The notes beneath the pieces are model-generated. The model did no database searches and had not been told where the DNA came from. It saw only the letters and a list, made by a program, of their open reading frames with translations. Both the position numbers and the translations under genes were made by a program. Positions 17,628 to 58,231 of a stretch of 64,000 bases of DNA are shown here, piece by piece. Position 1 is the first letter of the stretch, and each line of letters opens with the position of its first letter. Source of the DNA: Podarcis cretensis (Eukaryota); the NCBI GenBank assembly GCA_951804945.1, contig OX638149.1, positions 59,272,001 through 59,336,000 on the forward strand, given 5' to 3'.

Positions 17628-18624
17628 ACTAATGAGAAGCCTCTTCCACTCATAGATCCCAGTCTTCAGATTCAGGAGAATAGCACTTTGTTAGAAAAGT
17701 AACTCAAAATCCAGAGGAATGAATCTGTTTGTGCAGACTTTTGTATAATAATTTGCAAAAGCTCATTCTCAGTATCTTTATGGTCTGCTGGTTTACACAC
17801 AACTATCTGTGTGTCCTTATTCACTGCTTCTTGTGCCATATGCCAACTGTGATACATTGTGGCACTGAACTGTACTTCTACCTCTTGCATAGGAACTCAC
17901 AAAACACTGAATTTCCCTCTTATTAATGGACTTCCTCTCTACATTGCTGCAAATTATTGTAGTTAAAAACAGTGTATCAGGCAATAAATTTCAACTGTCC
18001 ATGGGAACTAATCAGCAAGATTAGCAATTCAAATAATCTAAAAATGAGCGTTCCATGTGCCTTCATTTCAGTGCTTTTTGTAGACTAATTGTTCTCAAGA
18101 TGCCAGGTCTAGCCTTTCTGCAATCCAGGAGAAGTGAACATGTAATAAATTTTGGACTTCTGCTTTCTGAACAACAGCTATCTCTCCTCTACCCCACCCC
18201 CACCATGCTACAAGGCAAATCTATTTGGAAACAGAAGAAAGTTTCAAAGGCAATCTGGCACAGAGGGCCTGTCCTTTAAAGAAAAATGCTTAACTTTCAC
18301 TAGGCGTGCTAAAATAGCTCTTGGTATCCGAGCTGAAAATGTCTCAATAACCATAGTATACAAACCTGTTGTTTATGAAGACACTCCTGGTTTGTACTAT
18401 TAACTGTACTCAGTGCTCATTCACACCTAGACTGTGATTAAAGCCAGGATGAATTTGTAGGTGGGTAGGTAGGTACAGAGCAGCTAGACTATTTTGCCTC
18501 ACCACATGTGTAATACAGCAAATGCAGTATTTGCAGAAGAGACTGGAGAAAGCATGCAGCAAGATCCCCTAATCATGGTTGTAAAATAAACATTTTACAT
18601 CTGTATGAGGCCAATAACCTAGTA

Positions 18625-18856
18625 CAGTGGTACCTCAGGTTACAGACGATTCAGGTTACAGATGCTTCAGGTTACAGACTCCGCTAACCCAGAAATAGTA
18701 TCTTGGGTTAAGAACTTTGCTTCAGGATGAGAACAGAAATCATGTGGCGGCGGCGCAAGGCCCCATTACCTAAAGTTGTACCTCAGGTTAAAAACCAGTT
18801 TCAGGTTAAGAATGGACCTCCAGAACGAATTAAGTTCTTAACCCGAGGTACTGCTG
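18625..18856. mobile_element. Tigger/pogo-like MITE, family A
   Basis: TIR cagtggtacctc ... gaggtactgctg; TA flanks; reverse-oriented sibling at 44093-44334. Confidence 0.85.
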
Positions 18857-18858
18857 TA

Positions 18859-19098
18859 CAGTGGAACCTTGGTTCTCGAACGGCTTAATTGACTAACAAA
18901 TTGACTTCCGAAAGGCAAAAACCCGGCAGTAAGTGTTCTGGTTTTTGAACGTTTTTCGGAAGCCGAATGTCCAATATGGCTGCCAGCTATTGTTTCCAGG
19001 GCGCCTGCCCCAATTGGAAGCTGTGCCTTGGTTTTTGAACGTTTCTGGAGTCAAATGGATTTACGAAGTGGATTAAGTTCGAAACCAAGGTTCCACTG
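18859..19098. mobile_element. Tigger/pogo-like MITE, family B
   Basis: TIR cagtggaaccttggtt ... aaccaaggttccactg; TA flanks. Confidence 0.85.
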
Positions 19099-27872: not shown

Positions 27873-28118
27873 CTTTTTCTTCTCCAGGTTGCGCAACTTC
27901 TTGTCGATGACGCCCAGAATCTGCTTCATGGCCTCGGTCTGCACCGAACTCGTGCTGCCGCCCGGAACCGACGCCGACGCCGCTTGGGATGGAGCCGCCC
28001 CAGCAGCTACCGTTGCCGCGGCTGCCGTTGCCGGAGGCGCCGCCGACGCCGCCTCGTTCCCGGTTTTGCCGCCGCTGCTGCCGCTGCTCGCCATCGCGCT
28101 GCTGGTGGCCGAGGGCAT
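27873..28118 (-). CDS. CAPRIN1: CAPRIN1 exon 2 (first coding exon, 82 aa)
   Basis: ATG at 28118; MPSATSSAMASS...VQTEAMKQILGVIDKKLRNLEKKK; donor aag|gtgcgg. Confidence 0.97.
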
Positions 28119-42235: not shown

Positions 42236-42630
42236 GGTCCCGTCTACACTATACATTTAAAACAGTATCACACCACTTTAAATGATAATGGCTACACTTC
42301 TCTAAGTGGTTAAACAATCAGTCCCTCTCCCCTGGGAACTCTGGGAACTGTATGTTTGTGGGAGAAGTAGGGATCTTCTAACAGCAGGCATAGGCAAACT
42401 TGGCCCTCCAGATGTTTTTGGGACTACAACTCCCATCATCCCTAGCTAACAGGACCAGTGGTCAGGGATGATGGGAGTTGTAGTCCCAAAACATCTGGAG
42501 GGCCGAGTTTGCCTGTGCCTGCCTAACAGCTCTCAGCAGCCTTAACTAACTACAATCCCCATACTTCTTTGAGGGAAGTCATGAGTGAAATGGTATAATA
42601 CCACTTTAAATGTAGAGTACAGGTGGGGTT
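42236..42630. mobile_element. Palindromic non-autonomous DNA element hosting a nested MITE
   Basis: Ends gtctacactatacatttaaa...accacttt and its degenerate reverse complement at ~42590-42630. Confidence 0.55.
42385..42521. mobile_element. Near-perfect palindromic hAT MITE
   Basis: caggcataggcaaact...agtttgcctgtgcctg; TSD tctaacag/cctaacag. Confidence 0.88.
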
Positions 42631-43282: not shown

Positions 43283-43440
43283 CATAGAATTATAGAATTG
43301 TAGAGTTGGAAGGGACCCTGAGGGTCATCTAGTCCAACCCCTGCAATGCAGGAATCTTGCCCACAGCCATCTCTGAGTGGGCTTGAACCACTGACCTTCT
43401 GGTTAAGAGCCAAACACACTGACCCACTGTGCCACCTGAG
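43283..43440 (-). mobile_element. tRNA-head / CR1-tail SINE
   Basis: Minus strand: A-box/B-box-like head (ggtggcacagtgg...ggttcaagcc), then the CR1 3' end with (attctat)n tail. Confidence 0.65.
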
Positions 43441-43453
43441 AGTTTTTCCAGAG

Positions 43454-43775
43454 CAGGGGTAGGCAACCAAAGCCCGTGGGCCGGATGCAGCCCAATCGCC
43501 TTCTCATTCTGGCCCATGGACAGTCCAGGAATCAGCGTGTTTTTACATGAGTAGAATGTGTCCTTTTATTTAAAACGCATCTCTGGATTATTTGTGGGGC
43601 CTGCCTGGTCTTTTTACATGAGTAGTATGTGTGCCTTTATTTAAAATGCATCTCTGGGTTATTTGTGGGGCATAGGGATTCGTTCATTTCCCCCTCCCCC
43701 AAATAGAGTTTGGCCCACCACATGGTCTGAGGGATGGTGGACCGGTCCACAGCTGAAAAAGGTTGCTAACCTCTG
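43454..43775. mobile_element. hAT (Charlie-like) MITE with internal ~70-bp tandem duplication
   Basis: TIR caggggtaggcaacc ... ggttgctaacctctg; exact 8-bp TSD ttccagag. Confidence 0.88.
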
Positions 43776-44092
43776 TTCCAGAGGATGTGGGATTTAAGAC
43801 ATGCAAAAAAGCTGGAACCCAGCTGTTTTCATTTCAAAGACATGAAGTTAAAGTCATGCACAGATCAAAAGGAAAAAAATATTATGTATGGCGAGATCAA
43901 CCTCTTCATCCATCACTGATCTTTAGTGTCATCCATTGCATTTATTTGTTGCAGGGGAAATCAACCTGGTACCCTTCTGATCTTGAACTCCAATCCCCAT
44001 CAAGTCCAGCAACATCTATAGGTCACCCAGTTGTTCATTCCTGGTTTATTGTATTTATATTTCAGCTTTCTCTCACTGAGTCCAAGGCAGTA

Positions 44093-44334
44093 CAGTGGTA
44101 CGTCGGATTAAGAACTTAATTCGTTCCAGAGGTCCATTCTTTACCTGAAACTGTTCTTAAACTGAGGTACCACTTTAGCTAATGGGGCCTCCTGCTGCTG
44201 CCACGCCGCTGCCGCATGATTTCTGTTCTCATCCTGAAGCAAAGTTCTTAACCTGAGGTACTATTTCTGGGTTAGCGGAGTCTGTAACCTGAAGCATCTG
44301 TAACCTGAAGTGTCTGTAACCCGAGGTACCACAG
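44093..44334. mobile_element. Tigger/pogo-like MITE, family A (reverse copy of 18625-18856)
   Basis: TIRs with TA flanks; sequence is the reverse-complement sibling of 18625-18856. Confidence 0.85.
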
Positions 44335-44538
44335 TATGTCCTGGGTTCCCATGAAGTTTTCCATCCAGGCACACTAAGCAGGCTTGAACTGCCTTAGAGA
44401 GAGATTTTCAGTGTTAAGCCAATAATAGACTTCTAATGGCTAATTTTGAAGGCTATATAACGTGCACCTTTTTCCCTTTGAAATAAATTAAATAAATAAA
44501 TAAATGCCCAGTAGCACCTTAGAGACCAACTAAGTTTG

Positions 44539-44582
44539 TTCTGGGTATAAGCTTTCGTGTACATGCACACTTCTTCAGATAC
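44539..44582 (-). ncRNA. Second minimal hammerhead core (5'-truncated stem I)
   Basis: Minus strand gtat CUGAAGA a gtgtg-catg-tacac GAAA gc UU atac; stem I only ~4 bp. Confidence 0.55.
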
Positions 44583-44606
44583 AGTGTGCATGCACACTTC
44601 TTCAGA

Positions 44607-44657
44607 TTCTTTGGTATCTGAAGAAGTGTGCATGCACACGAAAGCTTATACCCAGAA
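44607..44657 (+). ncRNA. Minimal type I hammerhead ribozyme
   Basis: ttct-tt-ggtat CUGAAGA a gtgtg-catg-cacac GAAA gc UU atacc-c-agaa. Conserved core, stem I and stem II pairing, palindromic AGCU minimal stem III, predicted cleavage after 44647. Confidence 0.75.
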
Positions 44658-47246
44658 CAAACTTAGTTGGTCTCTAAGGTGCTACTGGACAATTTTTTAA
44701 TTTTTTAATTTATTTTGACTGCGTCAGACCAACACAGCTACCCACCGGAATCTATTTCCCTTTGGAAATACTTGGCCCTCCTAAAACAGTGGATTGGCAT
44801 TTCTTCTCTAAAGGCAAAAATCAGATCCCTGCAAGTGATAAATTGCCTATAGCTTATAACAAGCCACAAAGCCTATGAAACAATTTTGGAGAGCCAAACT
44901 TTAGACTTGACTATAAGAGCACTCATCTGCCCCCTGGCATGTTCAAATTGTTAGGGTGTGAAACCTAAGACACTGGCAAGTTAGCAATGTCATGTGACTT
45001 TAAGTAGTCAAGCTCGTTAAGTTGTTAAGTTGCTCAGTATATAAAGAGTGTTTGTTTTCTCTGCCTGTGGGGGGCGTGAAGCAAAAATGTCTGAAAGCTC
45101 CGGAGGTGTTTCTGTTATCTTTCTGCAATAAACCTGTCTTTGGAAAGACAGGCTTCCCTGTGTCGTTATTTCTTTGCTGCTGAGACTCTGAAGCTTGTAC
45201 TGCAACAAGAATCTCTGCACTGGACTTAATCAATGCTCTGCAAAGAGAACTGTTGCTGGTTGCGCAGCGGAAGTGTTTACTGGACCAGTACACAGACTCT
45301 CTTACAAATTACTCCACTGTGTGCAGTTTTCCCTTTCCTCTCTTTGATAGGAAAATGCGGCATGCAATAGAATGGGGGTGGGGAGCGAGCTTTAGTAGTG
45401 ATTTCGGTGACATGTAGATTGGCAAGTATTTCTGATTTCCAATTTTTTCAACAATCAACAACAAAAAGAAAGACATGCACACCCTTAATTCAGGCTGCCA
45501 AAATGCAGAAAGATTGAGTTAACAATGAAAGGACTGTAAGCTCACTTACGGACTCATTGTTAAAACCATGTTTATGGAAGACAATCTTACTTGGCTACGA
45601 GTGATCACCAAAGAAGAAGAAGCTCAGTCCAGTTCTGGTATGGAAAAGAAATTCCCAGACTTAAAATGTGCTCAGGGGCACCTTGTTCTTCAATTCTAAC
45701 CACATACCTTTTGCACCTGGCTCTGCTTGGTAGATCTTGGCTTTCTAGCTTAAAATAAACTACACTCCCATCCTTGCATGCCAGCTCTCATAGGAATGTT
45801 AAAGTCCCTGTAAGTTGACACATATGTATTAGTAGCACTGGAAACATGAAGGACATTCTGTTATATGTATCATATTCCTCTTTCTTGTTCTCTTCTGGGG
45901 AAAAAAAATTCTAAAGGAACTTCTTGACAACATTTCATTCCTGAATGGTAGTGATAAAACCATTCATTTGATACCTGGGAGAGATTTAACTCATTTAACT
46001 CACAAGGTTGCTGTGTGTGCCCTTGCAACCCAAAGGTTTAGGTGTAAATTTATGCTGCACAATACATTGCATTGTGCAGGGAGTCATTTATAATAAATTG
46101 CAATACTGTCCCTTTCGCAGGACATATAAGCTGTATATAAAATGGTGTTTGTTTCCCATGTTTGTGACGACCAATGGTGTTTAATAAAACTTGACATTTC
46201 TCTTATAGAACAGAATGAAAAGCCCCAAAAAGGCCTGAAATGTGGCCCTTATGTTGCTGGTCCTCTAGGCTCCTGCCATGATGGCTTTTATTAGCTCTGT
46301 TTTCTAATAGCATCCATAATAAATTAGCAAAATTGCGACACCAAATATAACCATAAAGCAGCCACCAGTAATCCGTATATGAATCTAAAGACTGCACTAG
46401 TGCAGCGTTTCTCAAAATCTTTGAATGCAGCCCTCCTTCTGAAATTACGCTACCTTTTGTGACAGCCACATGTACCCATGCAAAAATAGCAGTTTGTTCC
46501 ACAGAGGCATGTGTGTGAAGATTCTCATACACAGTTGAATGCAGCCTCCTGATGTTTGTGTGATGATTTGTGAACTGCAGTAGTAAAATGAGGAAACTTG
46601 TAAAATGGGACATATGATTCCCCTATCCTAAACCAAACATTGATTTTAAAAAAATAGAATAAGCATCCTCCTTCCAAAATCAGATTTTGATGATGGGCCA
46701 GGAGGGATAAAGTCATCCATATAAATACAGTGTGAATCAGTGATTGTCCTCTTAAGTTTTGGCTGTGGAGGGAAGAGGGCAGAGTGAGGAAAGTTCTTGG
46801 AGTGAAGCGCAAAGAGAAAGTGATACCTTGATCAAGAACCCCATATAACTTATGGAGGCAGTACTGTACTGTGGATTCCATACACCCACAAACTGACTGA
46901 AAAAGAATGGTGCTAGAGACAGCTCAGCATATCAAGATCAGCAATGGTGAGGAAGAGGCCTATAGCTTGGGAAGCTTCATCTGACTATAGTATAAGGGTA
47001 GGCAATATGGTGCCCTTTGGCTATTGGACTACAACATCTGTCAGCCCCAGCCAACATGGCCCATTGTTAGGGATGATGAGAATTGGTGTCCAGCAACATC
47101 GGGAGGGAGCCATGTTGACTGTCCCTGCTCTGGTGAGTGACCCAGATGGAGGCACATATATGAGAAGCTCCGGCTAGCTTCAGGGTTAAAAAGCAAATCC
47201 AAAGAGGGGATTAATACACTCATTTATCTAATGAAGGATTGGGCAG

Positions 47247-49060: not shown

Positions 49061-49132
49061 ATTTGGCCCTAATCATGATTTTACATTATAATGTGCTAAT
49101 ATTATAGTGTAAAATCATGATTAGGGCCAAAT
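49061..49132. repeat. 72-bp inverted repeat / hairpin
   Basis: 32-bp arms with 1 mismatch, 8-nt loop gtgctaat. Confidence 0.9.
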
Positions 49133-58095: not shown

Positions 58096-58231
58096 CAGTG
58101 TTTCCCAACCTTGGGTCGCCAGCTGTTTTTGGACTACAACTCCCATCTTCCCTAGCTAGCAACACCAGTGGTCAGGAATGATGGGAATTGTAGTCCTCAA
58201 ACAGCTGGAGACCCAAGGTTGGGAAACACTG
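58096..58231. mobile_element. Palindromic hAT MITE
   Basis: cagtgtttcccaaccttggg ... cccaaggttgggaaacactg; exact 8-bp TSD ccatagat. Confidence 0.9.

Follow-up and report, generated by a model that had tools for sequence, protein, structure and literature searches.

The window analysed here is a stretch of 64,000 nucleotides from Podarcis cretensis (contig OX638149.1, positions 59,272,001 to 59,336,000, forward strand). It contains a CAPRIN1-like gene at 2960-28118 on the minus strand, for which Pfam Caprin-1 domains were found in 3 of the 108 scanned frames. The likely start codon of this gene is at 28118, and a GC-rich promoter region lies at approximately 26-30 kb. From 28 to 64 kb, none of the scanned frames reached a Pfam cut-off; the scan covered 108 of the 159 frames of at least 75 aa and would miss short exons. 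Several short repeats are also present. A high-depth repeat of ~245 nt occurs at 44091-44336 and 18623-18859 in copies that are 87% identical, with terminal inverted repeats and flanking TA, and we take it to be a Tc1/mariner-type MITE. Related palindromic repeats of ~140 nt at 42384-42522 and 58096-58231, which are without a hammerhead by descriptor, likely form a MITE family; palindromes of 60-106 nt at 444-549, 574-633, and 49061-49132 are unrelated to the insertion described below. A tRNA-like match at 43369-43441 on the minus strand (44.2 bits, imperfect acceptor stem) is likely the head of a tRNA-derived SINE.

A non-coding insertion of 274 nt occupies 44481-44754, upstream of the CAPRIN1-like gene at 16.4 kb from its start codon. 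It is bounded by exact target-site duplications of 10 bp, for which the chance probability is ~5e-4, and the target site is pyrimidine-rich and not markedly AT-rich. The parts of the insertion, including arms that resemble the pseudo-LTR (pLTR) of Penelope-like retroelements (PLEs), are as follows.

44471..44480, no strand: left target-site duplication, 10 bp, identical to 44755-44764
44481..44582, minus strand: inverted, tail-less pLTR-like arm, mirroring 44614-44715 with 6 mismatches in 102 nt
44545..44582, minus strand: complete minimal type I hammerhead motif, stem I of 4 bp, predicted cut after 44549
44584..44607, minus strand: second inverted piece, core and stem II without GAAA, exact antisense of 44616-44639
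44607..44613, plus strand: junction piece lengthening stem I of the plus motif, probably not family sequence, judged from translated copies
44613..44652, plus strand: complete minimal type I hammerhead motif, predicted cut after 44647 (U17), fitting the consensus of PMC4209133
44614..44715, plus strand: sense pLTR-like arm of a high-copy repeat, from arm comparison and read depth
44716..44754, plus strand: one-sided tail, 39 nt, 67% A+C, absent from the left side
44755..44764, no strand: right target-site duplication, 10 bp, with contigs of X5 and X10 running across the junction

The initial annotation had described arms of 75 bp with 1 mismatch; this holds for the inner 75 nt (44508-44582), where a single mismatch is found, and not for the full arms of 102 nt. 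The hairpin predicted from the arms contains perfect runs of 53 and 21 bp. The third partial core that had been noticed in the spacer was confirmed as the piece at 44584-44607, which stops at the border of the 14-nt palindrome formed by stem II and its loop, and the 39-nt tail on the right had been overlooked. Collectively, structural features by which endonuclease-positive PLE insertions are recognised were found: a short duplication, a head-to-head inverted and 5′-truncated pLTR, a palindromic junction, a tail of 30-40 bp at one end, and membership of a dispersed high-copy repeat.

The two complete hammerhead motifs are arranged head to head on opposite strands, and the third is truncated. 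In the plus motif, the core CUGAAGA (44618-24) is followed by an unpaired A at 44625, stem II of 5 bp (44626-30/44635-39), GAAA at 44640-43, the palindromic AGCU at 44643-46, the triplet CUU, and stem I of 5 bp (44613-17/44648-52). The minus motif has its core at 44578-44572, and a change at 44561 gives one G.U pair in its stem II. Both strands show the marks of the minimal type I hammerhead of PLEs, namely a CUGANGA core, an unpaired base, a G-C pair closing stem II, GAAA, palindromic 15.2/16.2, an NUH triplet, and a helix I of 4-5 bp (5 bp in plus, 4 bp in minus). The complete plus-strand hammerhead and the second intact core on the minus strand, both reported from the letters of the sequence, were located in all their parts. 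A scan of both strands of the 64 kb with a descriptor returned exactly these 2 motifs; 30 Markov-shuffled windows yielded 0 strict and 3 loose hits in total. A search with hammerhead models, as the initial annotation had proposed, was productive in its descriptor half and not in its Rfam half: no hammerhead family was present among the Rfam matches at gathering score (1 hit) or at E<=10 (0 of 36), and all 36 of the latter lie below their own gathering scores. A microRNA precursor was considered and rejected, the Rfam miRNA matches being sub-threshold and of a generic hairpin type. U17 was likewise rejected as a disabling change, as it is found in 24 of the 56 published motifs in Fig. S3 of PMC4209133; GUC is reported to be the best triplet (PMC2238771).

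Four of the 24 sequencing runs listed (X1, X5, and X10 DNA-like; X23 RNA) were aligned to 43700-45500. The summed depth over 44615-44675 was 3.6e6 in X1, 1.2e6 in X5, and 3.6e6 in X10, and the unique-flank bins showed depths of 71-165 in X1 and of tens to a few hundred across the DNA runs; summed depth is not a copy number, and it is the contrast with the flanks that marks a very abundant repeat. The majority allele at 44647 is C, with 56%, 77%, and 61% of the depth in X1, X5, and X10, respectively, and 562 of 650 reads in X23, and that at 44653 is A, with 52%, 65%, and 58% of the depth and 582 of 639 RNA reads. Both arms of the window copy carry the minority alleles T44647 and C44653, as would be expected if a single template had been copied in a single event or if the arms had been homogenised afterwards. 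The clustering of joints at 44612-44617 was not counted as a truncation hot spot because alignments to the window must end there.

Further copies were recognised through proteins. A protein search with the sense arm's 30-residue frame as query gave 4 singleton matches (P0002-P0005), which we read as spurious ORFs across other copies of the repeat. P0002 opens with SFRVHAHFFRY, just as the translated left arm of the window does, and contains the sense arm further on; judged from these letters, it is a translated second head-to-head copy with a different centre, and the centres vary among P0002-P0005. At the site of SLVSEEV in the window and in P0003, P0002 has FSVSEEV, and here the antisense and sense parts of P0002 match each other. 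From this agreement we infer a family stem I of 4 bp, with 44607-44613 as an added stretch of junction sequence that is similar, but not identical, to the reverse complement of the strand downstream. The extension of stem I by ttct/agaa, which had been reported as part of the ribozyme, is present but likely made by the junction rather than a family feature. Peptides of the form 'MHTKA..KLSWSLRCYW' in public protein collections are likely annotation noise. None of the 4 protein matches contains a reverse-transcriptase or GIY-YIG domain, and there is no such ORF at the locus; four pattern scans, two of metagenome, one of viral, and one of prokaryote genome collections, gave 0 loci each, and no full-length element was retrieved from them.

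The right junction of the insertion is spanned by contigs from X5 (44681-44949) and X10 (44717-44949). In the left flank, contigs and window disagree at 13 of 377 positions for X5, 12 of 398 for X10, and 0 of 347 for X1. Since the right junction exists in both X5 and X10, the insertion likely predates the splits from these organisms, whose flanks are ~3% different, and a pre-split age agrees with the single mismatch seen in the inner 75 nt (P 0.27-0.34). The insertion had been called young on the strength of its similar arms; this can be kept in a relative sense only, its right junction being common to two other organisms. Next to it, at 44949-45306, lies an element of ~358 nt with a TG start, a CA end, and TATA-like and AATAAA motifs, which is repeated in X1, X5, and X10 and which resembles a solo LTR. 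At this site, the element is likely absent in X5 and X10, whose contigs join 44949 to 45323, and for this reason is likely younger than the PLE stub.

Folding predictions, whose energies leave aside tertiary contacts and proteins, place the 274-nt RNA in a single hairpin of -155.8 kcal/mol (z -24). When isolated, and with stems I and II enforced, the hammerhead fold has a predicted probability of 0.83 for the plus motif and 0.29 for the minus motif; with the spacer included, these fall to 1e-18 and 4e-10, respectively. The predicted probability is at most 4e-15 in 11 of 11 longer read-through contexts, partial transcripts included, and the predicted cost of the hammerhead fold is 20-46 kcal/mol in every read-through context. 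Whichever strand is transcribed, the polymerase reaches the antisense of the core, stem II, GAAAGCUU, and stem I before it reaches the motif. The read-through hammerhead is disfavoured because each motif's antisense is made first, and with this order on both strands the predictions give no second state. Only transcripts that begin within the spacer would free a motif, the plus motif having a predicted probability of 0.57 for a start at 44608, and a partner would still be needed. The two complete motifs, being on opposite strands, cannot form a dimer within one transcript, and for two isolated plus motifs a duplex of the stem II palindrome (-41.8 kcal/mol) is predicted to be preferred to a double hammerhead (-19.1 kcal/mol).

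The insertion is very probably a dead-on-arrival stub of a Penelope-like retroelement, with a mirror arm of likely fold-back origin and with hammerheads that are predicted to be locked in a long hairpin in read-through RNA. The earlier assignment to PLEs and its description of the ribozyme are supported, in that the duplication, inverted 5′-truncated arm, palindromic junction, tail, and minimal hammerhead match the published signature; every structural feature agrees with PLE insertions as they are described in the published reports. We infer that the insertion arose by synthesis, stalling, and fold-back. A PLE reverse transcriptase/endonuclease supplied from another locus would have nicked the target, and copying would have started from the tail of the element RNA and halted just beyond the hammerhead. 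A template switch by the new strand, or its folding back on the self-complementary stems, may then have given both the partial copy of 24 nt and the mirror arm of 102 nt from a single template, and repair would have created the target-site duplication. The hammerheads are likely inherited cargo of the terminal repeat of the element and inert here.

A more specific version of this mechanism, in which the hammerhead stems themselves determine the points of stalling and fold-back during PLE copying, is suggested by the partial copy, which ends at the stem II palindrome, and by both arms, which end at stem I; we consider it doubtful. If it were true, many insertions of a very abundant family would be born with antisense that disables their ribozymes, read-through would become long double-stranded RNA, the genome would gain many self-silencing hairpins, and the spectrum of breakpoints would be a direct readout of the PLE insertion mechanism.

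An improbable addition to the fold-back stub, compatible with it in origin and differing by the function that it adds, is that the locus is transcribed in some tissue and that its hairpin is processed into small RNAs or edited, helping to silence the family. The perfect runs in the predicted hairpin would suit such a role, and in transgenic Drosophila, rearranged copies of Penelope have siRNAs mapping to their inverted regions (PMC3681739). Transcription across the site, on which the initial annotation made any in vivo relevance depend, is weakly contradicted by the RNA run: depth was 0 in 11 of 11 unique-flank bins of X23, a single long-RNA run of which ~12% was read, from another organism possibly lacking the insertion, and with a filter that can remove reads. 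The hammerhead bin of the same run reached a depth of ~650; 87 of the 9193 reads aligned from this run are at least 99% alike, and 84% continue into other sequence. As reads cover this bin, are blank on the unique flanks, and mostly run into other sequence, the family is transcribed from other loci. The distance of the site from the CAPRIN1-like start codon and the lack of a coding match on that side in the Pfam scan also speak against a small-RNA role.

It is very improbable that the whole 274-nt palindrome is a mobile non-autonomous unit, retrozyme-like or MITE-like. The high depth of the repeat, the inverted junctions near the hammerhead in other contigs, and the derivation of non-LTR retrozymes from pLTRs (bioRxiv 2026.07.22.740005) would suit a mobile palindrome. 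However, the centre bin 44554-44614 lies ~36-fold under the sense-arm bin in the depth of X1 (partly owing to reads that fit both arms), the centres differ across P0002-P0005, head-to-tail units are absent, and the tail is one-sided. An assembly or sequencing artefact as the source of the mirror arm is extremely unlikely. Among the contigs listed, the left junction and the inverted arm are unbridged (44477-44510 being skipped as repeat), which would agree with an artefact, but the exact duplication on both sides, the 6 mismatches between the arms, the one-sided tail, and the three-piece centre all argue against it, and such layouts are typical of PLEs (PMC8557442, PMC3846280).

The proposal of the initial annotation that the site could act as a bidirectional switch, useful to the host, between self-cleavage and double-stranded or small RNA is the least credible of all: the complete cores in both motifs, the freed plus motif of a transcript starting at 44608, and the occurrence of U17 among published motifs are outweighed by the vanishing hammerhead probability in read-through with antisense made first, by the stem II duplex predicted for isolated plus pairs, by published monomers that are inactive and dimers that are weak (PMC4209133), by Xenopus dimers of which 1 of 9 cleaved (bioRxiv 2026.07.22.740005), and by read ends without a pile-up in X23, a library type that would hardly show one. 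Were the host to use such a ribozyme switch, this would be truly interesting, but the evidence speaks against it.

The fold-back PLE stub can be compared with several known systems. PLE insertions are described as 5′-truncated, often with an adjacent inverted copy and with a tail of 30-40 bp at one end (PMC8557442), and rotifer PLE copies show inverted pLTRs, duplications of 8-10 bp, a 31-bp tail, and head-to-head palindromic junctions that were read as self-priming (PMC3846280). The window shares with such endonuclease-positive PLE units the head-to-head inverted pLTR, the palindromic junction, a duplication of 8-10 bp, and the 30-40-bp tail at one end; it differs in that it has no ORF and that ~140 nt of the terminal repeat are left. 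Minimal hammerheads are standard in pLTRs and occur in turtle and snakes (PMC4209133). Like those of metazoan PLEs in that source, the hammerheads here have CUGANGA, an unpaired base before stem II, G10.1-C11.1, GAAA, palindromic 15.2/16.2, and a helix I of 4-5 bp, U17 being common, and the plus motif shares the CUGAAGAA and GAAA-GCUU segments with the turtle row of Fig. S3. Pairs of minimal hammerheads on opposite strands, 100-700 bp apart, were already reported in 2014 (Cervera and De la Pena, PMC4209133). In contrast to those pairs, the cores here are 39 nt apart, and, unlike the published motifs, stem II and its loop form a perfect 14-nt palindrome and a third partial copy is present. The four window motifs are printed in no paper of the literature searched, which shows only that the letters of this family are not printed there, and no cleavage data for the family were found in that literature.

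The Poseidon element PAc of Anolis carolinensis (PMC11167929) also carries a hammerhead in its pLTR with a tail shortly downstream. Its reverse transcription starts 111-118 nt into the ORF, the cut site is at 26 nt, and its tail falls between two reverse-transcription start sites; in the window, the arm and the tail end 68 and 107 nt past the predicted cut, respectively. PAc is autonomous and tandem with an ORF running from stem II, whereas the matching frame here stops after 22 codons, and the target reported for the anole PLE is markedly AT-rich, whereas that of the window is pyrimidine-rich. The anole hammerhead cleaves only with its protein; insertion in vitro proceeds without this cleavage, and the same report saw no read ends at the cut site. 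The insertion also resembles the non-LTR retrozymes (bioRxiv 10.64898/2026.07.22.740005) in being short, non-coding, pLTR-related, and intergenic with a type I hammerhead. However, retrozymes are head-to-tail, with the motif in consecutive units of the same strand, and the window holds a single head-to-head insertion with one complete motif per strand and no head-to-tail units; membership of the non-LTR retrozymes was rejected on these grounds.

The architecture is already known and has been in print since 2013-2014, and the window provides one more copy. As it stands, another pLTR stub of a very abundant repeat carries little weight. Its value lies in showing PLE insertion chemistry in compact form, with three pieces, clear breaks at the stems of the hammerhead, and alleles that both arms carry. 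A survey of junctions of this kind could put to the test the way in which PLEs build their inverted ends, a matter that the PLE papers leave unresolved.
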